From contig JBAWYD010000001.1 of NCBI GenBank assembly GCA_037143735.1, positions 1-49,615 of the forward strand: a stretch of 49,615 nt of DNA, given 5' to 3'. Below, piece by piece: positions 3,072 to 32,287 of this stretch. The notes under the pieces were generated by a model. It saw only the letters and a program-made list of their open reading frames with translations. It made no database searches and had not been told where the DNA came from. Both the position numbers and the translations under genes were made by a program. This DNA is from Deltaproteobacteria bacterium (lineage in GTDB: Bacteria > Desulfobacterota > Syntrophia > Syntrophales > UBA2185). Every line of letters starts with the position of its first letter. Position 1 is the stretch's first letter.

Positions 3072-4658
3072 TTACATCTCCAGTTGGGTAACTGAGATGA
3101 TATTGGGCAGACTCTGAAGCTTGTTGAGAACATCTTCGGATACCATGGTGTCCGTCGTCAGGACAACGAGGGCCTGTTTGTCAACCGCTTCCCGGCTCAG
3201 ATGAAGTCTTGCGATATTGACCTTGTTGGCCCCGAGGGTGTTTCCGATGTTGCCGATGACGCCCGGTTTGTCGTAGTTTGACACAACGAGCATGTGGCCT
3301 TCCGGAATGATCTCGACGGTAAATTTGTTGATCCTGACGATTCTCGGTTCCTGTCTTCCGAAAATGGTGCCCGCCGTACAGCTCTTTCCCTCGGATGTCT
3401 TGACGGTGAGGGATATCATGCTTGTGTAATCCCCGACTTCGCTGCTTCTTGACTCGACAACCCTGATCCCCCGATCTCTGGCAATGACGGGTGCATTGAT
3501 GTAGTTGACGTTTTCATTGAGAATGGGTGTCAGCAATCCCTTAAGGAGCGAGATGGTGATGGGCGCCACATTGTAATTCAGGATTTCACCGCTGTATTCC
3601 ACGATGACCTCCTTGATGCCTCCCTTGATGATCTGGGCATCGAATCTCCCCAGTTTTTCCGCAAGATTAACGTAGGGCTGGATAACGCTCAGAAGCTCCG
3701 CGCTGACCGACGGGAAATTAACGGCGTTTCTGATTTCCCCTTTTGTCAGGAAACCGGCAATCTGTTCGGCGATGGCGATGGCCACGTTGATCTGGGCCTC
3801 ATCGGTTGAGGCCCCCAGGTGGGGCGTGCAGATGACGTTTTCGAGAGCCACGAGATCCGTGTTTTTTGTCGGCTCTTCTTCAAAGACGTCGAGGGCCGCG
3901 CCTGCAACTTTTCCGGAGACAAGGGCGTCATAAAGATCCTTCTCGACGACAATACCCCCCCGTGCGCAGTTGATGATGAAAACGCCCTTTTTCATTTTCG
4001 CAAAGGCTGCGGCGTTGATCAGTCCTTTCGTGTCTTTTGTGCTGGGTGTGTGAACGGTGATGAAATCGGACTTTTTCAAAAGGTCGTCGATGGCGACAAG
4101 GGTAATTCCCATTTTCTCGGCGGCGGTGGGGGAAATGAAAGGATCATAGGCAATCACATTCATCTTCAGTCCCAGCGCCCGATCGGCGACAATGGTCCCG
4201 ACACGACCGATGCCGATGATGCCGAGGGTCTTGTTAAAATACTCGTTGCCCATGAACTTGTTTTTTTCCCACTTTCCCGCTTTCATGGACGCCGTCGCCT
4301 GGGGGATCTTTCTGGCAAGGGAGAGCATCATGGCAATGGCGTGTTCCCCCGTGGTGATGGTGTTCCCCCCCGGGGTGTTCATGACGACGATTCCCCGCTT
4401 GCTTGCTGCCACTATGTCCACATTGTCGAGGCCGATGCCGGCCCTTCCGATGACGGTAAGCTTTTCAGCGCAGTCGATAATTTCCCTGGTGACCTTGGTT
4501 GCACTCCTTATGGCCAGCCCGTCATAGTCTTTAATGACGCCCTTGAGTTCATCCGGTGTGAGGTTCGTCATGACATCCACCTCGATTCCCGGTGTATTCT
4601 TAAATATTTCTATACCTTCTACAGACAGGGTATCGCTCACAAGAACTTTTTTTATCAT
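3072..4658 (-). CDS. serA: D-3-phosphoglycerate dehydrogenase (long form with C-terminal ACT domain)
   Basis: 528 aa. NAD-binding 'GIIGIGRVG', the 'GRAGIGLDNVD' motif and catalytic 'TPHLGAST' are present. The C-terminal ~80 aa look ACT-like. Confidence 0.95.
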   Translation of the reverse strand: MIKKVLVSDTLSVEGIEIFKNTPGIEVDVMTNLTPDELKGVIKDYDGLAIRSATKVTREIIDCAEKLTVIGRAGIGLDNVDIVAASKRGIVVMNTPGGNTITTGEHAIAMMLSLARKIPQATASMKAGKWEKNKFMGNEYFNKTLGIIGIGRVGTIVADRALGLKMNVIAYDPFISPTAAEKMGITLVAIDDLLKKSDFITVHTPSTKDTKGLINAAAFAKMKKGVFIINCARGGIVVEKDLYDALVSGKVAGAALDVFEEEPTKNTDLVALENVICTPHLGASTDEAQINVAIAIAEQIAGFLTKGEIRNAVNFPSVSAELLSVIQPYVNLAEKLGRFDAQIIKGGIKEVIVEYSGEILNYNVAPITISLLKGLLTPILNENVNYINAPVIARDRGIRVVESRSSEVGDYTSMISLTVKTSEGKSCTAGTIFGRQEPRIVRINKFTVEIIPEGHMLVVSNYDKPGVIGNIGNTLGANKVNIARLHLSREAVDKQALVVLTTDTMVSEDVLNKLQSLPNIISVTQLEM

Positions 4659-7221: not shown

Positions 7222-8327
7222 TTAGCGAGGTGCTTACTCGGCACTTCGGAGACGCCTCACAAGACCTTTTTGAGAAGAGTCCGCTTCTTCAGTACATTAA
7301 CCTCAAGACAGTTTCCGCCACGCGTGGTTCAAAGGCAAGAAGCAGTTTCGCAAATCTCTACGCGATCTATGTGCTGGTGGAAGACTACGTGGCGCATGGT
7401 TTTCATAAGAAAGGGGATTACTCGAAATACGCTGGTGCGCAATTTTCGAAACTCTTCAAGCGGCAACGCGAGTTACCGTTTGGAAGTAAGTTGCAGAACC
7501 ACGGTCTGAATGACCGGTTGAATGGTGAATTCCGCAAGTTCTTCCCACAAGTGGACGCGCAGCCAATTCTAAGAGTGGTTGAGACTCGTAGGTACTGGAT
7601 AAACCGCAGACTCGTCGTGCTTTCGCTCGGAAAGAAGATGTTCGACATCGCCGAAGCCATCATCGAGATCATAAACGCATACGCCAAGGCGAAACAGGCA
7701 TCATTTGCCGGATTCATTAAGACCTGCGAACAACTGCGTGGCATTTCCAAACAGAAGAACGACAAGGTGGAAGGATTTGTTCTTGGACTGTTGGCTCCAA
7801 ATGTTGATGCCCGCATATTTGAGATCGTCAGTTATGCCATTTTGAAATACTTCTATCACGATCAAACAGTCTATTTCGGTTTTCAGTTGGATGATTTGGA
7901 AAAATCACCTCTGATTCTCTACAAGACCGGACGCACAAATGCCAACGACGGCGGCATTGATTTCGTGATGACGCCACTGGGGCGTTTCTTTCAGGTCACG
8001 GAGACGCTCGATGTACGGAAATATTTCTTGGATATCGATAAAATCGAGCGGTATCCGATAACCTTTGTCATCAAAGCCGTGGAATCCTCAGATGATCTTC
8101 TCAAGAAACTACGTGAAGGCGCAGAGCGCCAGTACTCTGTTAAGGCCATTGTAGAGAAGTACATGGCTTGCATTGAAGAGGTCATCAACATACCAATACT
8201 GCAAGAGCGCTTCAGGGCAGGCATATCCCAAGGCTACCTTGGCAACATCATGACCGAGATCGTCAGACAAAGCAAAGTCGAGTTCAACTACGAGGAACCA
8301 GACGACGATGAGAATGGCGAAGAATGA
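7197..8327 (+). CDS. Putative cognate Type II restriction endonuclease (family not recognised)
   Basis: Overlaps the MTase 3' end by 25 nt on the same strand. 'NDGGIDFVMTPLGRFFQVTETLDVRK' resembles a PD-(D/E)XK / Mrr-like core. The call rests mainly on context. Confidence 0.5.
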   Translation: MEHDFTPVISEVLTRHFGDASQDLFEKSPLLQYINLKTVSATRGSKARSSFANLYAIYVLVEDYVAHGFHKKGDYSKYAGAQFSKLFKRQRELPFGSKLQNHGLNDRLNGEFRKFFPQVDAQPILRVVETRRYWINRRLVVLSLGKKMFDIAEAIIEIINAYAKAKQASFAGFIKTCEQLRGISKQKNDKVEGFVLGLLAPNVDARIFEIVSYAILKYFYHDQTVYFGFQLDDLEKSPLILYKTGRTNANDGGIDFVMTPLGRFFQVTETLDVRKYFLDIDKIERYPITFVIKAVESSDDLLKKLREGAERQYSVKAIVEKYMACIEEVINIPILQERFRAGISQGYLGNIMTEIVRQSKVEFNYEEPDDDENGEE

Positions 8328-20986: not shown

Positions 20987-21532
20987 TCAACCGTGCTCTT
21001 CCGTATCACAGTATTTTTGGAGTAATCGGGCATATTGGGGATTTGTTCTCAAACCATCCCAATCAGTATCCCTTTCGATATAGACAAGATCCCTGAAACC
21101 TTTGCGAAGAGCCTTCTCCAGGAATTCCAGCGCTGGCCCTTCTTTTCCAGAGAGGGCATGGAGGCAGGCTGTCGCGTAATAGGCCTCCGCCAAATCCGGA
21201 TCATTTTTCAAGGCCCGTTCAAAAGTCGCAAGCGCCTCTTGCTTTAGTCCTTCGCGTTTCGCAAGAATGACGCCCAGGTCGTAATATCCAACCGCATAGT
21301 TAGGGTTGATCTCGATGGCATGACGTAACGATTTCTCAGCCTCCAACGTCTGTCCCAGATTATCATACGTCTGACCGAGGAGATTATGATACTCCGGTTT
21401 ATCAGGTGCAAGGTCCACAGTCTTCTGGAAATTTTCAAGGGCTTCCATGTATCGCTGCATTTGGAACAACTTGCATCCGAGGTTGAAATAGGCAAAAGCT
21501 AATTCTTCCAAAATCTTTTTTTCATCTTTCAT
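20987..21532 (-). CDS. Tetratricopeptide (TPR) repeat protein
   Basis: 181 aa with about four 34-aa repeats of the pattern 'A..Y..LG..Y...G....A...F..AL..DP'. Confidence 0.8.
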   Translation of the reverse strand: MKDEKKILEELAFAYFNLGCKLFQMQRYMEALENFQKTVDLAPDKPEYHNLLGQTYDNLGQTLEAEKSLRHAIEINPNYAVGYYDLGVILAKREGLKQEALATFERALKNDPDLAEAYYATACLHALSGKEGPALEFLEKALRKGFRDLVYIERDTDWDGLRTNPQYARLLQKYCDTEEHG

Positions 21533-21627: not shown

Positions 21628-23337
21628 CTAACCATCCTCCCCATCCTCTTCTGAAACATTCAGAGATAGCAGATTGACGGCTTCGACGGAGGGAAGTTCC
21701 TGCACGTTCTTGAGCTTTCTTCCAATAGCTCTCGACCGGACCTTGGCCTTTTCGATGGTGTCCGTTGCCTGATGCAGTTTGTTCTGAACGATGTCCAGAA
21801 CATCGCCGTACTTCGTCCATTCGGTCTTGACCGCCGCAAGAAGGTTCCATACCTCGCTGGAACGCTCCTGAATGGCAAGCGTGCGGAACCCCATCTGAAG
21901 GCTGTTCAAAATGGACCAAAGGGTAGTCGGACCGGCGATCACCACCCGGCACTCCCTTTGGATGACCTCGGTCAACCCGGGTCTTCGGATGACTTCGGCA
22001 AAAAGTCCCTCGATGGGCAGGAACAGAATGCCGAAATCCGTGGTCTTTGGGGGGCTCAGGTATTTCTCGCAGATGTCCCTGGCGCAGCTCTTGACGCGGT
22101 TCTCAAGCTGTTTTCCTGCTACTTCCACACCCTCTACATCGACCTTCTCTTGAGCCTCAATCAGACGTTGATAGTCTTCGACAGGGAACTTGGCATCAAT
22201 CGGGAGCCAGACGGTCTCATCCTTCTCCAAACCTTGTCCCGGCAACTTGATCGCAAACTCGACACGCTCGCCGCCATCCCTCGTGGCCACGTTCATGGCG
22301 AACTGATCGGGATTGAGAACCTGCTCCAACAGCGCCCCAAGTTGCACTTCACCCCAAGTCCCACGCGTCTTGACGTTCGTAAGTACCTTTTTGAGGTCGC
22401 CAACGCCCGTGGCAAGTGTCTGCATCTCCCCAAGCCCCTTGTGCACCTGCTCCAGGCGTTCGCTGACTTGTTTAAAGGATTCTCCCAGACGTTTTTCCAG
22501 CGTCCCTTGAAGTTTTTCGTCCACGGTCTGTCGCATTTGATCAAGCTGTTTGGCGTTGTCGATCTGCATGCTTTGAAGTTTGCCTTCCACCGTAACTCTG
22601 ACCGCCTCAAGTTTTTTCTCATTTGAATCGGAAAGCTTTCCGATCGCCGCCGACATTGTTTCAAGTTGGGTTTTTTGGACATTGGCCATCTCCCCCATTG
22701 TTTTGGTGGTGGCTTCTGTGATCCCTTTGAGAGCCGCTATGACCTCTTCCCTTAATTGTTTAGCACCTGTGGCCGATTCAGTTCGTATACCATCGAGTTT
22801 CTCACCACTGGTCTTTGTCAAGGAGGCGATCTGTCCTGAGAATGTTTCAAGCTGAGCTTTTTCGGCAACGGCCAAATCTTTCATCGTCTTGGCCATCGTC
22901 TCAGAGATGCTTTTGAGGGTCGTCACGACTTCTTCACGAAGCTGCTTAGCCCCTAAGGCTGATTCTGAACGCACGCCGTCCAACCGCTCACCGCTGGCAT
23001 GGGCAAAGGCACCGAGCTGACCCGAGAAAGCATCGAGTTGCCCTTTTTGTATATTGGCAACATCCATCATTCGCTGAACCACGGAATCACCGAAGGTTTT
23101 GAAGGCTTCGGTGAGTTCATGCCGCTGTTCCCTTGCTGCCTTGCTGAGTTCATCCCGGCTGTGAGCCACTTCCTCCCGGACCGCTCGTTCGGTACGTTCC
23201 TGCGCTTTTTCGAAGGCATCGAGGCGGGGAGCAAGCACAGCGGCGTCGCTTTGCGATGCCTTCTTTAAGAGAATCAACAGGAGCCCGATAACAACAACCA
23301 GCATGATCAATGCTGCAATCAACAGGGTATCAGACAT
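21628..23337 (-). CDS. rmuC: DNA recombination protein RmuC with an expanded N-terminal coiled coil
   Basis: N-terminal TM helix and a long coiled coil. The C-terminal nuclease-like region ('VEFAIKLPG', 'LPIDAKFPVEDY', 'FGILFLPIEGLFAE') is typical of RmuC. I prefer the ATG at 23337 (GGGAGGAG RBS 8 nt upstream) over 23391. Confidence 0.9.
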   Translation of the reverse strand: MSDTLLIAALIMLVVVIGLLLILLKKASQSDAAVLAPRLDAFEKAQERTERAVREEVAHSRDELSKAAREQRHELTEAFKTFGDSVVQRMMDVANIQKGQLDAFSGQLGAFAHASGERLDGVRSESALGAKQLREEVVTTLKSISETMAKTMKDLAVAEKAQLETFSGQIASLTKTSGEKLDGIRTESATGAKQLREEVIAALKGITEATTKTMGEMANVQKTQLETMSAAIGKLSDSNEKKLEAVRVTVEGKLQSMQIDNAKQLDQMRQTVDEKLQGTLEKRLGESFKQVSERLEQVHKGLGEMQTLATGVGDLKKVLTNVKTRGTWGEVQLGALLEQVLNPDQFAMNVATRDGGERVEFAIKLPGQGLEKDETVWLPIDAKFPVEDYQRLIEAQEKVDVEGVEVAGKQLENRVKSCARDICEKYLSPPKTTDFGILFLPIEGLFAEVIRRPGLTEVIQRECRVVIAGPTTLWSILNSLQMGFRTLAIQERSSEVWNLLAAVKTEWTKYGDVLDIVQNKLHQATDTIEKAKVRSRAIGRKLKNVQELPSVEAVNLLSLNVSEEDGEDG

Positions 23338-23487
23338 GATCCAACTCCTCCCAAAATTTGTTTGTTGAATAGACCGGTTACTTTCGGTCATTCATCTATT
23401 TACCTGTATTTTCCCTATATCTTTATGTTGATGTCATAGCTACTAACCCCCATGCCGGGGTCGGGCACATCCGAGGGGTAGGATTGA

Positions 23488-23643
23488 TTAGTAGTCTATG
23501 TGCAGTTTGGATAGAATATCCGGTGAGTCTCGCTTTACAATGTGGTAAGCCACCTTCTCATTACAATATGCCACAAAATCACCCGCCTCCAACGCTTCTT
23601 TCAAGACGGTGTAGTAGTCAACCGCTGGAGTAATAATCAACAC
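23488..23643 (-). pseudogene. Truncated tandem paralog of the 23692..23979 ORF (51 codons from a GTG; could be a gene remnant or a small functional ORF)
   Basis: Hand translation gives VLIITPAVDYYTVLKEALEAGDFVAYCNEKVAYHIVKRDSPDILSKLHIDY. This aligns with the C-terminal half of the upstream ORF (FAVAYYVILDDALSNGDFVLYNSGPPPTYRVVRKGQPDIMS). It is in the same frame and follows two in-frame stops. Confidence 0.4.
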
Positions 23644-23691
23644 TCTATGAGAAGCTCAACCGGTATGCTGGAGCTTCCGAGTAGAAGTGAT

Positions 23692-23979
23692 TTACTGTTT
23701 CATGGACATGATGTCTGGCTGTCCTTTTCTCACAACGCGATATGTCGGTGGTGGTCCGCTATTGTATAGAACGAAGTCACCATTTGATAAAGCATCATCC
23801 AGTATCACATAATAAGCAACCGCAAACTGATGTTCCCTTAATTTGGATTGTATCTCTTCAATGGTAACAAATTTGTCCAAACTTGGATCAATTTTAGAAA
23901 TAATCATTGAATGTGGTTTTGGTTTAGTTTCTTCTAATGCCGCCAAGAACTCTCCTTTTGTAAAAACCTTGCCTGTCAA
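23692..23979 (-). CDS. Small hypothetical protein (95 aa, TTG start), last gene of the candidate defence operon
   Basis: Open frame co-directional with the operon and 96 nt downstream of the glycosylase gene. No recognisable motif. A truncated paralog lies immediately downstream. Confidence 0.55.
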   Translation of the reverse strand: MTGKVFTKGEFLAALEETKPKPHSMIISKIDPSLDKFVTIEEIQSKLREHQFAVAYYVILDDALSNGDFVLYNSGPPPTYRVVRKGQPDIMSMKQ

Positions 23980-24075: not shown

Positions 24076-24855
24076 TTACAATTTCTTATAAAAACAATGC
24101 TTTACAACAAGACATTTACTGCATGTTGGCACATTTTCAAGACAGATACCCTGGGGAAGTCCAATGTCCATATCATCTTCGATATGCCCAAATTTCACCA
24201 TGATAATGTCTACATATCTATGGCTATAGCCGGTTTCTTCAGCAAATTTGTTGCAGACTTGCCGTGCGTCATCAAGGCAAGTTTCATTTCTGACCAATTG
24301 CAGGCGGCTCAATACCCTCATAATAACCCTGTCAGGTTTTATCGTTTTTGCCCCGATATCCGTGAGAAAATGGTGCACTGTCGCCTCGCCCATATAAGAG
24401 AAGGTATGTCTAAGGATCGTTGCCGCCTTTTCGAGATCTTCCGGGCTTCGGTTAAAATTCAAAGACCCCAGATAGTTTTTAAAGGAACCATGCCGCTTCG
24501 TTATGGCCTCTACGATTTTTGCGTTTGAAATGGCTGACCTTATTTTAGCGGGATGCCTGATCATCTTTGAATCTGTCAGGATCTTATTGAAATCGGACTC
24601 ATCATATCGGGCAACTGTTTTGTAGTCTGGGAAATATCCTTTGATTGTATCGATCTTGCTCGTTACGGTCTTGCTTTTCATGCCTGCGTAAAAAGGGATG
24701 TAGGCAAGAACCTGATAAAGGTAATTGTCATCGAAGGCTTCAAAGTCAAAGTGCTTGAACCGCTCGAATCTGCTGAGCACTGTCTCACGCGAATAATTTG
24801 AATTTTTAATGATGGTTTCCAGAATCAAATCGAATATATTTCTATGCTTTCCCAT
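24076..24855 (-). CDS. HhH-superfamily DNA glycosylase (Tag/EndoIII-like, MpgII-type) with a C-terminal [4Fe-4S] cluster loop
   Basis: 'AGMKSKTV...FPDYKTVARYDESDFNKILTDSKMIRHPAKIRSAISNAKIV...HGSFKNYL' aligns with E. coli Tag ('AGLSWITV...FDPVKVAAM...AGIIRHRGKIQAIIGNARAY...FADFVW'). An HhH-plus-Asp segment 'MGEATVHHFLTDIGAKTIKPDRVIMRV' is present. The C-terminal 'CLENVPTCSKCLVVKHC' is exactly C-X6-C-X2-C-X5-C, as in EndoIII and MutY. I prefer the ATG at 24855 (AGAGGA RBS) over 24924. Confidence 0.8.
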   Translation of the reverse strand: MGKHRNIFDLILETIIKNSNYSRETVLSRFERFKHFDFEAFDDNYLYQVLAYIPFYAGMKSKTVTSKIDTIKGYFPDYKTVARYDESDFNKILTDSKMIRHPAKIRSAISNAKIVEAITKRHGSFKNYLGSLNFNRSPEDLEKAATILRHTFSYMGEATVHHFLTDIGAKTIKPDRVIMRVLSRLQLVRNETCLDDARQVCNKFAEETGYSHRYVDIIMVKFGHIEDDMDIGLPQGICLENVPTCSKCLVVKHCFYKKL

Positions 24856-24901: not shown

Positions 24902-25843
24902 TCAGGGGGACGTTGAAAAACCATCCCGTGTGACTTTGTTCGATCCTTGAATCAATATCTCGTCAAGCGGATCATAAGCAGCCGTTTCCTTTTGATAATC
25001 TTTCCAGCGTTTTTCATAAACAGTCTGCGCCAAAAGTGATACATCCGTCGTTCTGCCTTCATCATCCGACTCATCAAGACCGTAGTCGTAACGAATTCCA
25101 CCGCGTTCAGTCAGAATATACCGGGCATGGGGTTTGTCACCGTCTGGTTTTTCCTTCCAACGGAAAACACGCAATTGCGAACCTTCCGGTAGGATTGGAG
25201 ACAAATAATTCTGGCAACGCTCCTGCCAGATATCCAGAGGAGGAGGGGGCTTTTTTATCGATTCTTTATACTCGGCATGAAGTTCACAACGGCGGGGCTT
25301 GTTGTTTTCGAAGGTAAAATTGATGATATGGGAAAATGTATCCCGGAATCTCGGTAATTCCGGATTGAAATGAGGATCAATCATCATGATTTCTTTACTG
25401 AAATTTAAAAGCGATCTTGCGCAAACCGCAAGATCGTATGCCTTTCGCGGCACTATTTTTTCCCTCGGGACATTCCATAGCTCGATTGTTTCATCAATGT
25501 CTTCCGCAATCAGGACTTTTTCGTGATTTCTCGGATTTTCACATGAGATAATGGCGTGAAAAAATTTAATGTCATGTTGATTTTCGGCGTTTTCGAGCCA
25601 GCCTCGTTCTGAAGAGTAATTCCTGTTGGAATTTATCAGCTTATGCTCCATATTGCGCAGCTTTTCAACAACGGCCGTCCTTTTCACTCCCTCTATAATA
25701 CAGTGGCTTATCGCCTCTTTCTGCCATCTTCGGGGGAAACGGGATATCAGTCTGCCATGGTGAACACCGCACTGGTCAATCACATATTTGAACGTTGGCC
25801 AGTTGTTGAGACAAGCGGGGTCCAGGGCAAATTCATGAATCAT
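24902..25843 (-). CDS. Hypothetical protein (313 aa), translationally coupled to the upstream ATPase
   Basis: The ATG at 25843 overlaps the ATPase stop codon as ATGA (the ORF-track start is 25888). I found no Walker, HNH, TIR, Toprim or PD-(D/E)XK motif. Candidate conserved strings are 'IMMIDPHFNP' and 'PHARYILTERGGIRYDYGLD'. Confidence 0.7.
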   Translation of the reverse strand: MIHEFALDPACLNNWPTFKYVIDQCGVHHGRLISRFPRRWQKEAISHCIIEGVKRTAVVEKLRNMEHKLINSNRNYSSERGWLENAENQHDIKFFHAIISCENPRNHEKVLIAEDIDETIELWNVPREKIVPRKAYDLAVCARSLLNFSKEIMMIDPHFNPELPRFRDTFSHIINFTFENNKPRRCELHAEYKESIKKPPPPLDIWQERCQNYLSPILPEGSQLRVFRWKEKPDGDKPHARYILTERGGIRYDYGLDESDDEGRTTDVSLLAQTVYEKRWKDYQKETAAYDPLDEILIQGSNKVTRDGFSTSP

Positions 25844-27675
25844 CAGAAAAGCTCCTTTTCGCGTTCGGTGAAAAAGCCTTCCGGCCATTTATCGATAAAA
25901 TCCCCATCCTCGGAAATGCGCAATTCCATGAGTTCCGTGCCGTGTTCCGTCGGCTTGGCATAAATGACAGCCACATCCTCTGGCTTGAGGGGTGGCTGGC
26001 CTTCCTCCAGTTCGCCGTTGGTCGTCTCCCGGATACGCCGGAGCAGGCGCAGCAGGAGATGCTCACTATGGGTTTCAATTATATATTGACATGGTTTCTT
26101 TTTCGCTCCTTCGATAAAGAAATCGGCCAATTCTGTCTGTAGACGCGGGTGAATGTGGATCTCTGGTTGCTCGATAAACTTGTAGCTCCATTCAGAACGA
26201 TCATAGTATTGCCCATTCCACTCATAGCGATCGGAAATCAGGCCGTCCACGAGTATAGGCAGGATCTGGCTTATGCCGAAGCCGACATCCTTGATGCAGG
26301 ATTCAATGCCTGTTTCCGTGCTAATGAGAACTATTTCGTAATAATCCCTGACCACAGGACGAACATTGATCTCGTAGCCTGCTTCCAGGCGCTTGAGCCA
26401 TGCGTTGACCTTCTCCAGAATGTCCGGCCTGGCAATTAGAATGTCCATCGTGTTTTCCCCTTTGCTGCCCACAGTTGCCGGCGCTGTTCCCGAATAGGCA
26501 TACATACGCTCTGGCATGGCCCGAAGAGGTCCGATATAGGTCGTCAAGGCCAGCATGTCCTGAAAACACCTAGAGGCGAGAAGAACCGCCGTGTAAGGAA
26601 GATAAAAACAGTGTGCTTCATCAGTCTCGCGCGCATCGGAAGCTCGCTGTTCTGTAAGCGCGCCAGCCTGTGATACCGCATGGATGAACCTGTACTCCTC
26701 GCCCGTAACCAATTTCTGGGGAAAACAATTACCCAGCGCGATAAGGCGATCAAAATATCCGTAATTATTGTGAAATACTGCTACCATCTCCATTAAATCA
26801 CTGTCAGACAAGTCCTGTATACTCTTTTGCAAAGATTCCAAAAAGGATAGGTAGCGCTCGCATTTTTTTATTTCCTCCTTGGCCTGGATATTCTCCAATG
26901 TATTTTCTTCCGCCTTTGCTTCCTTTGCCCTTGCTTTGGCAAGACGTTCTCTCAAAGGAGTCATCTCCTCTGTCAGGCCCATATCAGATGGTTCCTCTCC
27001 TTCTTCTTGTAGTCTTCGATTACTATCTGCGTTATAATCCCAGCGTGCCTTGACGCATGGATGATCCAGATTTAACTCTGTACGACACAACATATTTGAT
27101 GTTTTTAGTTTTTCCAGCTCCTCTTTCGCTTGTTTATAATTGGAATTTTTGATGGCTTCGGGGTCATTTTTTTCAACAAATTCTTGGATGATACTTTCCC
27201 ACATAGAGATTGCACTCTGCATCTCCGGGATGTCGTCCAGCAGGCGGTATGCTGTTACCACTTCTCCTCCGACCCGGTCGGAGATATCAATGGCCTTGAC
27301 ACGGATGTTGCGTTGCCTGTCCAAGGCAAAGCGCATACCAAGGGCAATCGTTTGTGTAGGGTTCCATACCCACGCCAAGTCATCTTCAGCCAGCGAAGAT
27401 GCATCCATAGCGATACTGAACCCAAACTCTTTCTGTTCGTTGTGGCCGTTGATAAATTCTCGGTAGGTGCCGGCATCGAGTAACTGTCCCCTGGGAATCA
27501 ACGCGCCTTGCTTGCGCCCCCCTTCATCAAGTGTCTGTTTGAACAACAGCAGCGCCTGCATAAGAGAGCTTTTCCCGGAACTATTTGGTCCATAAAGAAG
27601 AGTGATTGGCTTTAATGGGATGCGCTGCATCTTGCCGAAGGATTTGAAATTTTCGATGCCGATTTCTGTAAACAT
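25843..27675 (-). CDS. ABC/SMC-like ATPase of the AAA15/AAA21 type with a central coiled-coil insertion and a DUF3696-like C-terminal tail
   Basis: Walker A 'LYGPNSSGKSS', signature-like 'GFGISQILPIL', Walker B 'FIEQPEIHIHP', H-loop 'IIETHSEHLL'. Residues about 170-300 are charged heptad-like sequence ('RERLAKARAKEAKAEENTLENIQAKEEIKK'). The tail reads 'DGDFIDKWPEGFFTEREKELF'. AGGAGA RBS lies 6 nt upstream. Confidence 0.85.
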   Translation of the reverse strand: MFTEIGIENFKSFGKMQRIPLKPITLLYGPNSSGKSSLMQALLLFKQTLDEGGRKQGALIPRGQLLDAGTYREFINGHNEQKEFGFSIAMDASSLAEDDLAWVWNPTQTIALGMRFALDRQRNIRVKAIDISDRVGGEVVTAYRLLDDIPEMQSAISMWESIIQEFVEKNDPEAIKNSNYKQAKEELEKLKTSNMLCRTELNLDHPCVKARWDYNADSNRRLQEEGEEPSDMGLTEEMTPLRERLAKARAKEAKAEENTLENIQAKEEIKKCERYLSFLESLQKSIQDLSDSDLMEMVAVFHNNYGYFDRLIALGNCFPQKLVTGEEYRFIHAVSQAGALTEQRASDARETDEAHCFYLPYTAVLLASRCFQDMLALTTYIGPLRAMPERMYAYSGTAPATVGSKGENTMDILIARPDILEKVNAWLKRLEAGYEINVRPVVRDYYEIVLISTETGIESCIKDVGFGISQILPILVDGLISDRYEWNGQYYDRSEWSYKFIEQPEIHIHPRLQTELADFFIEGAKKKPCQYIIETHSEHLLLRLLRRIRETTNGELEEGQPPLKPEDVAVIYAKPTEHGTELMELRISEDGDFIDKWPEGFFTEREKELF

Positions 27676-27690
27676 GATGGTTCTCCTGAT

Positions 27691-27852
27691 TTATTGGCCT
27701 TTTTTCACCGCAGTAGCTTCATCCTCTTCAACTTTCTTTGATAAAGCCATTCTTACATAGGTTGACATGTCACAGTTAAACCTCTCAGCCTGTTTCTGAA
27801 TTCTTTCCTTAAATGCGTGGTTCGCTCTGATTATCATTACTGAAGTCTTCAT
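27691..27852 (-). CDS. Ribbon-helix-helix (CopG/Arc-like) DNA-binding protein, first gene of the operon
   Basis: 'MKTSVMIIRANHAFKERIQKQAERFNCDMSTYVRMALSKK' fits the beta-alpha-alpha RHH pattern. An AGGA RBS lies 7 nt upstream of the ATG at 27852. Alternative longer starts are 27945 (ATG) and 27981 (TTG). Confidence 0.65.
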   Translation of the reverse strand: MKTSVMIIRANHAFKERIQKQAERFNCDMSTYVRMALSKKVEEDEATAVKKGQ

Positions 27853-27988: not shown

Positions 27989-28004
27989 AGCAGGTTCTAT
28001 GCCA
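27989..28004 (-). promoter_or_regulatory. Candidate sigma-54 (-24/-12) promoter
   Basis: The minus strand reads TGGCAT-AGAAC-CTGCT against the consensus TGGCAC-N5-TTGCW. The GG and GC dinucleotides have the correct 10-nt separation. It sits in the intergenic region upstream of the RHH/ATPase operon and 1.4 kb from a sigma-54 activator gene. Confidence 0.55.
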
Positions 28005-28149: not shown

Positions 28150-29397
28150 TCAGGCAAGCCAGTTCCACGGAATGGCGATTACATGAGAGTGGAGCCAACG
28201 GATTTCTGAACCGGTGTATAGAAGGACGCCCCTGACAGTTTGGGGATATGCTTCGAGAAAGAGAAGAAGATTCTTGTAGTCGTTATATCCGGGATTGTCG
28301 GTCATTTTGACTTCGAACGCCAGTAGTTTTCGTCCGTGTTCAATAACGAAATCGACCTCCTTGTTGCCCGTTGTTTGCCAGAAGTATATTTTCCCCTTGG
28401 GGGTCATTAATTCCGTCAAAATCCTCAGGTGCAAGAATATCATGGTTTCAAAGAAATTTCCAAGTTCTCTTCCCTTGCGCAGGGCATCCTCATCGAAGTA
28501 GCCTGACAGATAGACGCTCAATGCGGGATCAACAAAATACAGTTTGGGAGTTTTTTTTATCTGACTGGTGCGATTTACGTAAAAAGCCGGCACCCTGGAG
28601 ACGATGTTCGATATCTCCATAAGCCTAAGGTAACGAAATACAGTGGACTGGCTAACGCCCGTGTCTCTCGCCACGTCGGTCTGTTTCATCATGCAGCCGG
28701 TGCGCAGGGCGAATGATTCCACCACCTTTCTGAAATCAATCAGAGAATCGACCTGAGATAACTGACGCAAGTCTCTTTCCAGATATGTCCTGACGTATCC
28801 CTCCCACCAGAGAGATATCTGCTTGGGATTGTCCAGAGTCAGAAGCGGCGGCATAAAGCCCCGCAAAATCAGCGGCAGCGGATCTGTGGCATCTTTTTTC
28901 TGTTCTTTGATTTCAAGGTCATCGTTCCATAAGTTCAGAAAATTCTGAAATGCATCTTCCTTTCCTGTCATTTCTCCGTGCGACATCGGCAGGAGTTCAA
29001 AATAAACCGCTCTTCCCGCAAGTGTTTCACTTACCTTTTCCATCAACAGGAGATTTGCAGAGCCTGATATGAGGAATCTCAACCTTCTTTGGCTTGAATC
29101 AACGGCAAGTTTTATGGCGGAAAAGACTTCGGGCAATCTCTGTGCTTCGTCGATGATGATTTTTTCCGCCCCTTTCCAGAGGATTTGAGGATCGCTTTTC
29201 GCCTGCTGAAGAATTCTATGATCGTCAAAGCTGACATATCTGAAGTCGGGAAACTCGTTTTGAAGAAGGGTGCTTTTGCCTACTTGTCTTGCGCCCGTTA
29301 AAACCACAACAGGAAATATTTCAATAGCTGCGGCTACTTCCTTAGCCATCCATCTTTTTTTGTAAATCAATTCAGGTGCTGAATAGTTTTCATTCAT
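28150..29397 (-). CDS. AAA+ ATPase with DUF4143-type C-terminal region (COG1373-like) carrying a PD-(D/E)XK-like motif
   Basis: Walker A 'LTGARQVGKST', Walker B 'IIIDEAQ', a wHTH-like 'VSQSTVFRYLRLME', and C-terminal 'EVDFVIEHGRKLLAFEVK'. Confidence 0.85.
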   Translation of the reverse strand: MNENYSAPELIYKKRWMAKEVAAAIEIFPVVVLTGARQVGKSTLLQNEFPDFRYVSFDDHRILQQAKSDPQILWKGAEKIIIDEAQRLPEVFSAIKLAVDSSQRRLRFLISGSANLLLMEKVSETLAGRAVYFELLPMSHGEMTGKEDAFQNFLNLWNDDLEIKEQKKDATDPLPLILRGFMPPLLTLDNPKQISLWWEGYVRTYLERDLRQLSQVDSLIDFRKVVESFALRTGCMMKQTDVARDTGVSQSTVFRYLRLMEISNIVSRVPAFYVNRTSQIKKTPKLYFVDPALSVYLSGYFDEDALRKGRELGNFFETMIFLHLRILTELMTPKGKIYFWQTTGNKEVDFVIEHGRKLLAFEVKMTDNPGYNDYKNLLLFLEAYPQTVRGVLLYTGSEIRWLHSHVIAIPWNWLA

Positions 29398-29452: not shown

Positions 29453-31006
29453 TCACATCCCAAACTTTTCCTTCGCCCGCTTGCGGAAGGTATGGGGTTT
29501 GATTTTGAGGAGTCGGGCAGCGGCTTCCCGGTTGCCGTCTTTCATTTTGATGGCTTCTTCATAGCAGGACTTTTCAAGATCGTGCAGATATGCGTCGATG
29601 TCCAGACCTTCGGGCGGGACGGAGGTTTGCCGGAAAGGCGTAGAGGGCGTATCTTTAGAAGACAGGAATGAAGGTGATGTTTCCGGAGGCAGGTCTGCGT
29701 CTCTGATAACATTGCCTTTTGATATAACAAATGCCCGCTCCATAGCGTTCTCGAGTTCCCGAATGTTGCCCGGCCAGGCGTAATCAAGGATTTGTTTCAT
29801 TGCTTCCCGGCTGAGCTGCTTCTTCTGACGGTAACGATGGTTATGGTTGTTCAAAAAATGCTCCACGAGGAAAGGAATATCTTCTTTTCTGTCGCGTAAG
29901 GGCGGCATCTGAATATCGATGACCTTCAGCCGGTAATACAAGTCTTCCCGGAATTTGCCTGCGGTGACGAACCCGGCCAGATCCCGGTTGGTGGCGGCGA
30001 TAACCCGCACATCCGTCTTTATGGGGTTCAAGCCGCCGACGCGCGTGATCTCATAATCCTGCAGAACCCGGAGGATCTTGGCCTGGGCGGGCAGGGGCAT
30101 ATCGCCTATTTCGTCGAGGAAAATGGTTCCTTTGTTAGCCAGTTCGAATTTGCCCTTCTTCTGCTGAATCGCACCGGTAAACGCGCCCTTTTCATGGCCG
30201 AAAAGTTCGCTTTCCACGAGGGTTTCCGGAATGGCCGCGCAGTTAACCACAATGAAAGGCTCAGTTTTTCTCGCACTGTTGAAATGAACCGCACGGGCGA
30301 TGAGTTCCTTGCCCGTACCGGTTTCCCCTTGAATTATGACGGCAGAGTCATACCGGGAAGCAGCCCTGACCACATCAATTACCTTCTCCAGGGCAGGGCT
30401 TTTACCGATCATCCGGAGATCGGAAAATTCGCGAACAATGTCGTCCCTTTCCGCCTCTAACTGTTCTTTTCTCAATAAGGTTACGACATAATCAAGATTC
30501 TCCAGTGCAGGGGACGAAATCAGGGGAAAGTTATCGAGAGGTAAATGGATTTCGGAGACAGCCTTTTGACGGGGCCTCAAAAACCTGGGCGGTGTGATTT
30601 TGAGCAGAGTCGCCGGAACCAGTCCTGACCGGGAAAGGAGAAACCAGATTGTCTGCATCTGCGGCGTCCCGGATGCCGTGGCAATCCAGTAAGATGGCTG
30701 CTCATTTTTGTGCTTGCCCATGATATCCTGACAGAGCCTGTTCATATGGAGAAACAGGTTTTCATAGTCCGTAGGATCAGAAATGTCGATGTTTAGTATG
30801 CTGGTTTCGACGTCATTCACGCGTCCGGCGATCTCATCCTGAAGGTTGTGGGCATTGGTCAGGGTATTCGGGGTTGTAAAAATATATATCCACTGGAAAT
30901 GCCGCTCCCCGAGAAGCGTCAGCACGGGGCCTTCGGAATTGATGCCCTGGATGATTTCGAGGTTGAATGGATCCCGGTTGCCGGCAAAGGTGAGCAGTAT
31001 ATCCAT
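29453..31006 (-). CDS. Sigma-54-dependent transcriptional activator with an RtcR-like CARF N-terminal domain
   Basis: AAA+ core 'GETGTGKE', '[15 protein letters not shown]' (GAFTGA) and 'IFLDEIGDM'. C-terminal Fis-type HTH '[19 protein letters not shown]'. The N-terminal ~170 aa, including '[19 protein letters not shown]', align with 'YLIHITTGTHVAQICWFLL' of E. coli RtcR. Confidence 0.85.
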
Positions 31007-31020
31007 AGCGATTCCTCAGA

Positions 31021-31428
31021 TTACGGTTTAACGCCTCTGATCTCAAGAAATTCCCGGGGTGTGACAATGTTTATTCCCTGATACCGGCGGACATCAATCA
31101 GCGCCTTGTCACCGGAGACGACATATTGGGCCTTCAGGGCCAGGGCGCAGGCGATGAATTTGTCGTCGTCCGGGTCAGCGACGACATGAACTTCCGGCGT
31201 TCTGGTCGTAAAGACAATGTGGAAGCCGGTGGCGAAAAGCTTCAGCAATTCCTCCAGCTCCTGCGTATTGTCGAATCCCAGGCGACGGAGAACTTCGATG
31301 TATTCATCAAAGATTTCCTGCGAAAGGCAGAGTGTCAGGCGGCCATCTTTCCATAAATCGATGATTGCTCTCGGGTTGCCTCCGAAGAAGGAGGAAATGA
31401 AAACATTGGTATCCAGGACGACCCTCAT
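31021..31428 (-). CDS. PIN-domain toxin (putative RNase)
   Basis: 'MRVVLDTNVFIS' (first acidic residue), 'EEL', 'DPDDDKFIACA' and 'VVSGDKAL' are typical of the PIN_3/TIGR00305-type family. ATGA overlap with the upstream antitoxin gene. Confidence 0.85.
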   Translation of the reverse strand: MRVVLDTNVFISSFFGGNPRAIIDLWKDGRLTLCLSQEIFDEYIEVLRRLGFDNTQELEELLKLFATGFHIVFTTRTPEVHVVADPDDDKFIACALALKAQYVVSGDKALIDVRRYQGINIVTPREFLEIRGVKP

Positions 31429-31673
31429 GTCTTGCCCTGCCTGACTTCCTGAATGGTCTCGGAAATCCGGTCGGCTGTGACGCCCTGCGAGACCAGCCGC
31501 ATTCCGATTTTTTCCCAGAGACCGTCCACATATGCGGCTATATCGCGGCTGGATATATATTCCTCCAGCAGCTCCCGGACGACGTCGCTGGTCGTTTTCC
31601 CCTCCGCCCGCGCAAAGCGGTTTACTTTATCTTTAAGCACAGGATCGATCCGGATGATCATCTGGGTAGACAT
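31425..31673 (-). CDS. RHH-type antitoxin partner of the PIN toxin
   Basis: 'MSTQMIIRIDPVLKDKVNRFARAEGKTTSDVVRELLEEYI' fits the RHH pattern. AAGGAGGAG RBS lies 6 nt upstream of the ATG at 31673 (ORF-track start 31724). Confidence 0.7.
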   Translation of the reverse strand: MSTQMIIRIDPVLKDKVNRFARAEGKTTSDVVRELLEEYISSRDIAAYVDGLWEKIGMRLVSQGVTADRISETIQEVRQGKT

Positions 31674-31783
31674 GGCGCTCCTCCTTTTGTGAAACCGTAT
31701 TAAACGTTTATACGATATATACAAAAGAAAACAGTGTCAAGAAAATTTTCAGCCGATAAAATCTGATGGGTTCGTAAAATGTC

Positions 31784-31903: not shown

Positions 31904-32287
31904 TCATCCATATCCCAGTTCGATCAGCCTGTCTTCGCTGATCCCTATGAAGTGGGCGATCTCGTGTACGACGGTGATTTCGATCTCTTCCTCTAACTCC
32001 TCCAGCGTTTCGCACATCTCCTCGATGGGTTTACGGAAGATGTAGATCGTGTCCGGATAAAGAGGAGGATAGAGGGCTGTGCGCTCCGTCATGGCGGTGC
32101 CCACATATAAACCCAGAGGAGAGTCCTCCGTCGACAACCCCAGTTCCTTCAGCATTTTCCGGGAGGGCTTTTCACGGACGGAGATCAGAACATTGTCAAG
32201 GTAATGGCGGATCTCCTCGGGAATGCGGGAGATCGCCCTTTCTACGATCCTGAAGAAATCCTTTTCGGACAGTGTTTTTACAGCCAA
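31904..32287 (-). CDS. Small zinc metallopeptidase-family protein (DUF1025/minigluzincin-like)
   Basis: 127 aa with HExxH 'VVHEIAHFIGISEDRL' near the C-terminus. Confidence 0.75.
   Translation of the reverse strand: MAVKTLSEKDFFRIVERAISRIPEEIRHYLDNVLISVREKPSRKMLKELGLSTEDSPLGLYVGTAMTERTALYPPLYPDTIYIFRKPIEEMCETLEELEEEIEITVVHEIAHFIGISEDRLIELGYG

Follow-up and report, generated by a model that had tools for sequence, protein, structure and literature searches.

Genes of the groEL-ileS island

In the window, by which we mean the whole stretch of 49,615 nucleotides that was analysed, an AT-rich island of 11.6 kb flanked by groEL and ileS houses the gene of an HhH DNA glycosylase (Table 1). This gene is itself AT-rich (GC 41.4% versus 49.9% for the whole window; GC3 0.47 versus 0.60 for groEL), and no second member of its family was found within the window. 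Homologues are about 258 aa long and the ribosome-binding site AGAGGA lies just 5′ of the ATG at 24855, so the gene is real as originally delimited; a start at the first ATG (24924), giving 282 aa, was rejected on the same grounds. When marks of the island borders were sought, no tRNA gene was found near the island, there were no Rfam matches, and no flanking repeats were present in the window.

Table 1. Features of the island around the glycosylase gene, with positions in the window
Feature	Position	Strand	Basis
RmuC-family protein	21628..23391	minus	Pfam RmuC 1.3e-76
Two small paralogous ORFs (95 aa, 51 aa)	23488..23979	minus	downstream of glycosylase
HhH DNA glycosylase gene	24076..24855	minus	259 aa; ORF and translation
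Predicted [4Fe-4S] cluster loop C238-X6-C245-X2-C248-X5-C254	24094..24144	minus	read from sequence
HhH hairpin M-G156-E-A158-T159 and Gly/Pro-Asp loop	24316..24408	minus	alignment columns
Tag-like core, residues ~41-168	24352..24735	minus	alignments to Tag structures, column conservation
PLD-fold protein, 313 aa, NsnC-like	24902..25843	minus	AF2 and Foldseek
ABC-type ATPase, 610 aa, NsnB-like	25843..27675	minus	Pfam AAA_15, AAA_21, DUF3696; PADLOC
Ribbon-helix-helix (RHH; Arc/NikA-like) protein, 53 aa	27691..27852	minus	weak Pfam NikA-like, PHROG Arc-like repressor
Sigma-54-type -24/-12 motif	27989..28004	minus	upstream of RHH gene
DUF4143/AAA_14 ATPase	28150..29397	minus	Pfam; matches PADLOC candidate PDC-S01
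RtcR-type sigma-54 activator (CARF-like N-terminus, AAA+, HTH_8)	29453..31006	minus	Sigma54_activat 1.3e-71, RtcR 1.4e-9

The glycosylase gene comes last in a same-strand run with the genes of the RHH protein, the ABC-type ATPase and the PLD-fold protein. A gap of 46 nt separates it from the PLD-fold gene, no terminator was predicted in this gap, and the genes may be co-transcribed. To this extent the locus agrees with the original prediction, which had placed the glycosylase fourth in an ATPase operon; its association with the ATPase pair has to be narrowed to one subclade of the family, as described below.

The ATPase was matched to NsnB of PADLOC (E 4.9e-57) and to Pfam DUF3696 (1.6e-5). 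For the PLD-fold protein, a Pfam scan returned no match. Its AlphaFold2 model (pLDDT 91.3) was matched by Foldseek to FAM83, NucT, PLD3/4, SauUSI and Zucchini, and its invariant residues include E187-x-H189 and H239-x-R241. The ATG of this gene at 25843 overlaps the stop codon of the ATPase gene, and both genes are translationally coupled. Of 80 related loci, 75 have the ATPase gene immediately before a PLD-like gene. Pfam and PADLOC scans detected neither NsnA nor DUF262 among the neighbouring genes.

The RHH gene lies 15 nt upstream of the ATPase gene and is preceded by a putative sigma-54 motif, TGGCATAGAACCTGCT, which is a match with two mismatches. Over the window as a whole such motifs are not enriched (21 matches, 21.7 expected). 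The weight of this one comes only from its position and from the enrichment upstream of homologous ATPase genes, where the same motif occurs within 110 nt in 10 of 55 related loci (about 0.8 expected). The gene of the DUF4143/AAA_14 ATPase is inserted between the RHH gene and that of the RtcR-type activator. RtcR-type regulators are found near the ATPase/PLD pair in 12 loci.

On the other side of the glycosylase, the two small ORFs (45% identity over 40 aa) form the most AT-rich part of the island; they gave no family matches in Pfam, PADLOC and PHROG. As to the RmuC gene that lies beyond them, RmuC-like genes come directly after the ATPase/PLD pair in two other loci (L115 and L116).

Domain make-up and conservation of the glycosylase family

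The similarity to Tag, which the original prediction had noticed in the N-terminal region, was found by two approaches and extends further than supposed. Residues ~40-170 match Pfam PF03352 (Adenine_glyco; E 1.9e-16, 60.8 bits, cut-off 25), with only positions 20-116 of the 177 profile positions covered, and the family profile matches Tag structures with an E-value of 5.6e-15 (profile positions 47-174). Beyond the N-terminus, the similarity runs on through the HhH motif. The protein stayed below the cut-offs of the models specific for Tag: NCBIfam TIGR00624 scored 31.2 bits (cut-off 232.5) and PRK10353 scored 28.3 (cut-off 349). Within the core, a DNA-intercalation loop F55-Y56-x-G58-M59 can be recognised, in which G58 and M59 align to G43 and L44 of Tag. 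K-P-D, H162, N111 and T159 are invariant in the family.

Two residues of the 3-methyladenine pocket of Tag are replaced. E38 aligns to I53, in a column that holds V or I in 166 of 167 family sequences, and W46 aligns to S61 (A or S in 169 of 170). Because of these replacements the glycosylase is, as judged from its sequence, not a canonical Tag. The alignments reach Tag residues ~27-173 only, and the N- and C-terminal segments of Tag that bear the Zn-snap have no counterpart. In E. coli Tag, the Zn-snap is formed by Cys4, His17, His175 and Cys179.

Instead, the C-terminus carries the sequence CLENVPTCSKCLVVKHC, in which four cysteines are arranged as in the cluster loop of EndoIII. An EndoIII-type loop had been proposed in the original prediction. 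In the family, each cysteine is kept in 165-168 of 174 aligned homologues, and the exact C-X6-C-X2-C-X5-C spacing is present in 133 of 164 full-length sequences, most of the others showing C-X5-C-X2-C-X5-C. The cluster loops of Mig (1kea), EndoIII (2abk) and MutY also gave weak alignments with the family profile (E 0.05-1). The loop would hold a [4Fe-4S] cluster in place of the Zn-snap of Tag.

The score against Pfam HhH-GPD (PF00730) stays below the gathering score (17 bits, cut-off 26.2). G156-E157-A158-T159 corresponds to G-R-K120-T of EndoIII, and from the spacing of the motifs and established knowledge of HhH-GPD proteins we take A158 to be the equivalent of K120 and D175 that of D138. 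An alanine at the lysine position had been proposed before, and the replacement turned out to be a trait of the whole family: the column holds I, V, A, R or T, and lysine in only two of 172 sequences. The downstream aspartate, likewise expected, stands in K173-P174-D175, which is unchanged in 172 of 172. With the lyase lysine missing and the aspartate retained, the enzyme is predicted to be monofunctional, a view that holds on sequence, on family conservation and on the AlphaFold2 model. Since there is no Schiff-base lysine, it would leave an abasic site without nicking the strand.

The check by structure modelling that had been suggested gave a model with a pLDDT of 94.6. Foldseek placed Tag first among its matches (TM 0.63), then MjOgg, EndoIII-3 and MutY, and no close solved structure was found for the family. 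Homologues formed 90 clusters in one database search, and 216 clusters at E<=1e-30 were counted among the 1.84 billion representatives of another database. Given these 90 clusters and 216 representatives, the combination of a Tag core with four cysteines is far beyond chance. The family is a rare, unstudied and uncharacterised Tag-related four-cysteine subfamily of HhH glycosylases. Our literature searches found no published description of a Tag-type glycosylase with an iron-sulfur cluster. In the collections of sequenced phages and plasmids, only canonical Tag-type matches were obtained (residues ~36-168), and IMG/VR yielded only three matches to the family. The only PADLOC match of the glycosylase was the model 'OGG' (PDLC00910), whose parent system was not found in the literature.

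Mobility and gene neighbourhood

That the gene is not of the housekeeping type, as the original prediction had assumed, is borne out by its low GC and by a variable, mobile context. In a sister species (GroEL 96.6% identical), the glycosylase gene at the same groEL locus is truncated by an IS element. Close homologues sit in a prophage and in an integrative element, and further ones have McrBC or NERD-UvrD/STAND genes as neighbours or are surrounded by toxin-antitoxin genes. A search of 83 loci for a neighbour conserved in the family found none. The glycosylase gene described here is most likely accessory and acquired by horizontal transfer, and the groEL-ileS island around it is variable. The mobile, defence-rich and AT-rich setting is true of the window and the close clade, but not of much of the distant family. 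The more distant homologues stand alone, without the ATPase/PLD pair, and the wider family (35-48% identity, 45 loci) lies mostly among genes of the housekeeping type, for example those for ETF, methionine synthase, Pol A and CTP synthase. Its ancestral role may therefore be repair.

From the domain make-up and this setting, we give roughly even chances to the reading that the protein is a monofunctional [4Fe-4S] HhH glycosylase with an accessory role, most likely in defence against invading DNA. Against this reading count the near absence of the family from sequenced phages and plasmids, the lack of a PADLOC system call, the two mismatches of the sigma-54 motif and the many pair loci without the glycosylase. 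The position of the distant members among ordinary metabolic and informational genes argues for another view, namely that a repair glycosylase for alkylated, deaminated or oxidised bases merely resides, or is co-induced, in the island. Its task might be to mend the host chromosome following stress, or following the collateral damage done when the neighbouring system fires. Homology to Tag fits such a role, the sources annotate the family as 3-methyladenine glycosylase I, RmuC, a recombination/repair-type protein, is encoded nearby, and another locus has an MGMT-like DNA-binding gene behind the pair. Operons for nucleic-acid repair are under the control of RtcR regulators, which also counts for repair. 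However, the residues by which Tag recognises 3-methyladenine are replaced, the gene is AT-rich, non-syntenic and interrupted by an IS element in the sister species, its close homologues occupy a prophage, an integrative element and defence islands, and 216 clusters are very few for a core repair function. We therefore hold repair to be a serious possibility, yet a rather doubtful one.

Only four of the 80 pair loci scanned contain the glycosylase (76 do not), three further lineages with both were found by look-up, and most family members have no ATPase/PLD neighbours. The arrangement with the glycosylase behind the pair is thus limited to one subclade with about five lineages. Where the trio recurs, identity goes down to 42-77% for the ATPase and 59-63% for the PLD-like protein, and that of the glycosylase stays at 72-76%. 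Beside the trio, L099-101 and L178 contain RtcR-type homologues (60-68% identity), and in L099-101 and L178-180 the glycosylase gene has a homologous RHH gene as neighbour. In contig P0004, there is an overlap of 14 nt between the start of the glycosylase gene and the gene before it. In L119, another ATPase/PLD pair is directly followed by an unrelated, clusterless Tag-like gene. A deletion in L187 and L188 has removed the ATPase gene together with half of the PLD-like gene, whereas the RHH and glycosylase genes are intact; linkage of glycosylase and pair may therefore be simple co-inheritance.

The pair itself is often embedded in type I R-M loci, and the gene that comes after it varies. Often this gene is of a DNA-modification-reading kind (for example GmrSD, a Tag-like gene or an MGMT-like gene). 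In L106, L110, L182 and others it encodes a protein of 280-285 aa, for which a UDG/Brig-like glycosylase was suspected from 'FKNPHPDS'. This assignment was dropped; comparison with Pfam, PHROG and PDB profiles gave only a weak match to HNH_2 (E 0.006).

Such variable readers behind the pair would suit a glycosylase that serves a Menshen-like system as its obligate third subunit, in place of the DNA sensor NsnA. It would detect modified invading DNA, might also process it, and would pass a signal to the ATPase and the PLD-fold nuclease or make substrates for them. The pair lacks any DUF262/NsnA gene, the trio is kept despite the deep divergence of the partner proteins, and the overlapping start in P0004 and the independent Tag-like gene in L119 point in the same direction. 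A precedent is given by END nucleases, in which a PLD nuclease is joined to an EndoIII-like sensor of modified bases (PMC12191111). Against an obligate subunit, most glycosylase homologues lack the pair and most pairs lack the glycosylase, and L187 and L188 retain the RHH and glycosylase genes after the deletion. In addition, END nucleases have an inactivated sensor domain, in contrast to the invariant catalytic aspartate here. We regard an obligate subunit as unlikely.

The survival of the RHH-glycosylase unit after loss of the ATPase pair could also be read as that of a selfish cassette, similar to toxin-antitoxin or restriction-glycosylase systems, in which the glycosylase would attack normal DNA unless repressed or neutralised. 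An RHH gene stands immediately before the glycosylase gene in L099-101, L178-180 and L187/188, and the locus is crowded with toxin-antitoxin modules. In the window, however, the RHH gene is upstream of the ATPase gene and does not adjoin the glycosylase, many homologues have no RHH neighbour, and no methyltransferase partner is present. We know of no HhH glycosylase that acts as a toxin, and we consider a selfish cassette highly improbable.

Proposed function and known systems

For the accessory defence glycosylase, to which we return here, the following course can be proposed. The cassette would comprise, in this order, a sigma-54-like promoter, the RHH gene and the genes of the NsnB-like ABC ATPase, the NsnC-like PLD-fold protein and the glycosylase, with the RtcR-type activator adjoining. 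The glycosylase would be expressed together with the neighbouring ATPase/nuclease module and probably be able to act alone. Its substrate would be a non-canonical base (phage-modified or otherwise abnormal) in invading DNA, which it would flip from the double helix and release by hydrolysis of the glycosidic bond. A foreign modified base as substrate, which the original prediction had brought up, is plausible by analogy to Brig1, the Dag families and END nucleases.

A closer coupling of these components can be imagined, although we rate it as improbable. In such a three-part immune cassette, the glycosylase, itself catalytically competent, would replace NsnA, find the modified base in the invading DNA and excise it. 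The abasic sites, or the complex of enzyme and DNA, would then license the NsnB-like ATPase, which would set the PLD-fold nuclease free or activate it, and the CARF/sigma-54 activator of the RtcR type would switch on the whole cassette after an RNA-damage signal. At the same time, the family would be a long-missing link, and Tag would descend from an HhH glycosylase with an iron-sulfur cluster and the aspartate.

Glycosylases have been recognised as immune effectors only recently (Brig1 in 2024, the Dag families in 2025), and HhH domains as sensors of modified bases for PLD nucleases became known with the END nucleases in 2025. Since the glycosylase has been kept by a module without NsnA over deep divergence, and a Tag-like gene is found in the same position in L119, the locus is a concrete and testable candidate for a system of several genes in which base excision is coupled to a nuclease under ATPase control. 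The mapping of DNA modifications might also profit from the enzyme, which may have a new base specificity.

The closest known relative is Tag (PF03352, TIGR00624; PDB 2ofk, 4ai5, 1lmz). In both proteins, the helical core is homologous from around residue 27 of Tag up to and including the HhH motif. They also share the helical barrel, the intercalating G-[LMF] loop, the conserved Asn in I-x-N-A and the absence of the lyase lysine. They differ in the N-terminal ~40 residues and in the C-terminus, where the four-cysteine loop takes the place of the Zn-snap ligands. Tag is an odd member of the HhH proteins, with a Zn-snap instead of an iron-sulfur cluster and without the HhH-GPD catalytic aspartate, whereas this aspartate is invariant as part of K-P-D in the family described here. 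A Tag-type core with both the aspartate and the four-cysteine loop is a ready-made test of the evolution of Tag and of the contributions of cluster and aspartate.

With the iron-sulfur enzymes EndoIII (Nth), MutY, Mig/MIG and MpgII, the glycosylase has in common the C-terminal C-X6-C-X2-C-X5-C loop, the HhH motif with an Asp ~17 residues further on, and a similar fold (TM 0.5-0.66). MutY, Mig and MpgII are likewise monofunctional, as is predicted here. The sequence similarity to EndoIII, MutY and Mig is, however, marginal and confined to the cluster loop. Compared with EndoIII, Lys120 is replaced and the core is nearest to Tag, not to Nth.

Among defence proteins, Dag1-17 are HhH glycosylases in AT-rich mobile contexts, and some of them cluster near Tag in structure trees (bioRxiv 10.1101/2025.10.29.685425). 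Brig1 is a defence glycosylase (PMC11078745; as cited in bioRxiv 10.1101/2025.10.29.685425). Dag and Brig genes usually stand alone in AT-rich, mobile or defence contexts, with Brig3 in an operon with BapA. Beside the Dags as described there, the present protein stands apart as recognisably Tag-like, devoid of the lysine and equipped with a four-cysteine loop; a mention of an iron-sulfur cluster in Dags was not found in the preprint text. Brig1, Brig2 and Brig3 have a UDG fold, in contrast to the HhH fold here.

In END nucleases, which act in anti-phage defence, a PLD nuclease forms a single polypeptide with an inactivated EndoIII/Ogg domain, and the HhH module reads hypermodified bases (PMC12191111). 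The combination of a PLD-fold nuclease with a module of the HhH glycosylase type is thus found in both cases. Here, however, the two are encoded by separate genes (Table 1) with an ABC ATPase in addition, the four-cysteine loop is present, and because the catalytic aspartate is kept the glycosylase is probably active.

For the pair, the nearest system is Menshen (NsnA-NsnB-NsnC; PMC12065111), in which the ATPase is likewise of the NsnB type with DUF3696 as its tail. In the window, the gene that comes next is translationally coupled to that of the ATPase; its product has at the C-terminus a PLD-like domain with an H-x-R motif, much as in PB-PLD1, an effector variant of NsnC described in the same work (PMC12065111), and the frequent embedding of the pair in type I R-M loci fits the associations reported for Menshen (PMC12065111). 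A term search of the Menshen paper (PMC12065111) found no control by a sigma-54 activator of the RtcR type. The main difference lies in the third component: in contrast to Menshen, no NsnA (ParB-DUF262) gene is present here, and a Tag-like glycosylase gene is located downstream instead.

The glycosylase gene and its island

The island between groEL (end 20853) and ileS (start 32479) comprises 11.6 kb, with every gene on the minus strand. From the small ORFs through the glycosylase to the 313-aa gene, GC content drops to 38-45%, against a window mean of 50%; GC3 of the glycosylase gene is 0.47, versus 0.60 in groEL. No other gene of the island is as AT-rich as the two small ORFs, which gave no family match in Pfam, PADLOC or PHROG. 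The toxin-antitoxin pair and the metallopeptidase-like gene form its ileS-side end.

Genes of the island in window coordinates
Feature	Position	Strand	Remarks
TPR protein	20987-21532	-	
RmuC	21628-23391	-	
Two small paralogous ORFs	23488-23643 (51 aa) and 23692-23979 (95 aa)	-	45% identity over 40 aa
Glycosylase	24076-24855	-	
313-aa protein	24902-25843	-	no Pfam match
610-aa ATPase	25843-27675	-	AAA_15/AAA_21/DUF3696
53-aa RHH protein	27691-27852	-	
DUF4143 ATPase	28150-29397	-	PADLOC PDC-S01
RtcR-type sigma-54 activator	29453-31006	-	
PIN_3 toxin and RHH_1 antitoxin pair	31021-31724	-	
Zincin_1 metallopeptidase-like gene	31904-32287	-	

The glycosylase ORF has its stop end at 24076 on the minus strand, and translation from its first ATG, at 24924, would yield 282 aa. 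Since almost all homologues have a length of about 258 aa, and since AGAGGA stands in front of the ATG at 24855, the real gene encodes 259 aa and has exactly the boundaries named in the original prediction. Its start follows the 313-aa gene at a spacing of 46 nt, and no terminator was predicted between the two.

Pfam assigns the protein to Adenine_glyco (PF03352, E 1.9e-16); HhH-GPD stays under its cut-off and the NCBIfam Tag models match weakly (31 bits versus a cut-off of 232). By sequence, Tag structures are the closest solved relatives. The C-terminus reads C238-LENVPT-C245-SK-C248-LVVKH-C254, corresponding to C-X6-C-X2-C-X5-C. A word-index search delivered 90 homologue clusters and a complete HMMER search against 1.84 billion cluster representatives delivered 216 family representatives at E<=1e-30; this is a genuine but rare family. 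In an alignment of 174 sequences, each of the four cysteines is kept in 165-168, and K173-P174-D175, H162 and N111 are invariant or almost so. The column matching Lys120 of EndoIII (A158 here) is occupied by I, V, A, R or T, and by Lys in two sequences only. The exact EndoIII spacing of the cysteines is found in 133 of 164 full-length members, the remainder showing mostly C-X5-C-X2-C-X5-C.

Against Tag structures, the family profile gives an alignment with E 5.6e-15 that begins at about Tag residue 27 and extends through the HhH motif; its matches to Mig, EndoIII and MutY are weak (E 0.05-1) and fall exactly over their cluster loops. In the profile alignments, the 3-methyladenine pocket of Tag is altered (E38 to V/I, W46 to A/S), whereas its intercalating Gly-Leu loop is retained as G58-M/F59. 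For the Zn-snap segments at the two termini of Tag, alignments to Tag structures show no counterpart. An AlphaFold2 model built from the family alignment is confident (pLDDT 94.6); in a Foldseek search of the PDB, Tag ranks first (TM 0.63, target), followed by MjOgg, EndoIII-3, MutY and Mig, and no structure covers the whole query well (TMq <=0.57). The anatomy proposed at the outset, a Tag-type core with an EndoIII/MutY-type Asp and Fe-S loop and devoid of the lyase Lys, is thus correct by alignments and family profile. Because established HhH-GPD enzymology can be applied to this combination, the enzyme is predicted to be monofunctional and to bear a cluster.

Some family glycosylases (P0018, P0019, P0023) carry a fused C-terminal extension of about 130 aa. 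It is homologous to the N-termini of proteins whose own genes lie immediately upstream of other family glycosylases (L076 7537-8466, L085 6214-7659; 31-40% identity, E down to 1e-13), and this fusion-or-neighbour domain is without Pfam match.

The ATPase/PLD pair and its proposed control

The 610-aa ATPase, of the ABC type, matches the PADLOC model of NsnB (E 4.9e-57), and its stop codon is overlapped by the start of the 313-aa gene. The model of the 313-aa protein (pLDDT 91.3) shows a phospholipase-D-type fold with structure matches to FAM83, NucT, PLD3/4, SauUSI and Zucchini; E187-x-H189 and H239-x-R241 are invariant. The pair agrees with the published NsnB and NsnC of the Menshen defence system, the latter with a PB-PLD1 effector (PMC12065111). 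The PLD-like protein has 193 homologue clusters. As the ATPase lies directly upstream of the PLD-like gene in 75 of 80 metagenomic loci, these being all loci with enough upstream sequence, the two form a strict two-gene module, one in which the Menshen sensor NsnA is missing. It directly follows hsdR-hsdM-hsdS (type I R-M) in 22 of the 80 loci, and the gene on its 3' side varies greatly (RmuC, GmrSD, REase-helicase, RadC, MGMT-like, a 280-aa unknown family, Tag-like). In sister-clade pairs, this third slot is taken by a conserved 280-285-aa family (L106 4308-5150, L110 7931-8788, L182 5093-5947 and relatives) with often overlapping or near-abutting starts; family searches gave no match apart from a weak HNH_2 (E 0.006).

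An RtcR-type (CARF-like) sigma-54 activator is encoded near the pair in about 12 of 80 loci, and 10 of 55 loci have a -24/-12 motif of the type TGGCAC-N5-TTGCT at 12-101 nt upstream of the ATPase gene, with about 0.8 expected within the searched 110 nt. Together these suggest a defence-like module controlled in an RtcR-type manner. In the window, the motif TGGCATAGAACCTGCT occupies 27989-28004 (-), a short way upstream of the RHH gene; activator or motif were also noted at L100, L101, L103, L106, L119, L123, L132 and L139-141.

Association, gain and loss of the glycosylase

In 4 of the 80 loci (L098-L101), the pair is followed by the Fe-S-type glycosylase, and further lineages came from look-ups of the closest relatives. 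P0001 has a 93% identical glycosylase and the same three-gene order; in P0004 (76%), there is a 14-nt overlap between the glycosylase start and the 324-aa gene before it. In L178-180, identity to the window is 74% for the glycosylase, 63% for the PLD-like protein, 42% for the ATPase and 68% for the activator. Within the subclade of at least 70% identity, the glycosylase has stayed beside the pair while its partners diverged to 42-77% identity. L119 represents an independent association: a clusterless Tag-like protein of 281 aa (3269-4114; Adenine_glyco E 3.7e-6), with K-P-D retained and the Cys loop absent, is encoded directly after a different ATPase/PLD pair with an upstream sigma-54 motif. 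The adjacency kept despite partner divergence and this second lineage argue for some selective link, which may be co-expression or cooperation.

An RHH gene immediately precedes the glycosylase in L099-101 and L178-180. At the chromosomal locus of L178 (L187 62-1507, L188 1525-2970), other toxin-antitoxin genes take the place of the ATPase gene and of the PLD-like gene's N-terminal half, while RHH and glycosylase genes are intact and 89% identical to L178. A selfish cassette of these two genes would fit this retention; we regard it as highly improbable. Copies of about 80 bp of the 3' end of an rtcR-like gene (L178 701-775, ~3108-3183, 8146-8226; L188 445-525) flank a block of toxin-antitoxin, ATPase, PLD-like, RHH and glycosylase genes. 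They look like the footprint of a cassette insertion there, and such repeats are absent from the window.

A sister species, with GroEL 96.6% and sensor kinase 74.6% identical to those of the window, has a glycosylase shortened to 201 aa, its gene lying 128 nt from the groEL 3' end. In L093 (13-1754), an IS630-like element (DDE_3 and HTH) abuts its truncated 5' end; in L094-L097 and L001 the shortened gene stands at the contig end. RmuC is missing there, as are the small ORFs and the ATPase pair. In 83 genomic loci with a family member (L001 at 86% identity, the others at 30-48%), neither the ATPase nor the PLD-like gene is present, and the loci share no conserved neighbour. The view that this is not a housekeeping gene is supported: it is no syntenic core repair gene but an accessory one that turns over.

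Most neighbours at 45 scanned family loci have ordinary metabolic or informational roles, and some defence genes are scattered among them. Closer homologues (57-78% identity) occupy plainly mobile or defence settings: in a prophage between serine recombinases and a lysis cassette, inside an integrative element, adjoining McrBC or NERD-UvrD, STAND and NOV_C genes, and amid toxin-antitoxin genes. A repair enzyme riding in the island would suit the former surroundings better than the latter, and we consider it a possible but distinctly less likely reading. A 48% identical homologue in a Pseudomonadota MAG lies between Cas_VVA1548-family and Cas2 genes (L002 8615-11561).

Menshen contains NsnA, a DUF262 sensor, whereas a scan of the genes neighbouring the window pair revealed no NsnA/DUF262 gene. 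The glycosylase might fill this place as an obligate sensor subunit, which we judge improbable; its activity is probably autonomous, because the family also occurs without the pair and can outlast its loss. Most likely, at about even confidence, it would be a monofunctional Fe-S HhH glycosylase that lies beside a Menshen-like ATPase/PLD module, is probably expressed together with it and acts as an accessory effector of defence type. The observation behind the original prediction is confirmed, and its interpretation, a non-housekeeping enzyme possibly directed at a foreign base, is supported in part.

Comparison with known systems

We searched the literature for a Tag-type enzyme carrying an Fe-S cluster and found none described; the glycosylase appears to be a new architectural variant among HhH glycosylases in a new gene association. 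It was the UDG-fold enzyme Brig1 that is reported to have established base excision as a mechanism against viruses (PMC11078745). Dag1-17 are HhH glycosylases of Vibrio integrons which restrict 7-deazaguanine phages; they reside in AT-rich mobile DNA, some are near Tag in structure trees, and Dag1 relies on a Lys-Asp pair and seems to be bifunctional (bioRxiv 10.1101/2025.10.29.685425). Fe-S clusters are not mentioned in that preprint. In END nucleases, a PLD nuclease is fused to an inactivated EndoIII/Ogg domain sensing hypermodified bases, which is a direct precedent for cooperation of PLD and HhH proteins (PMC12191111).
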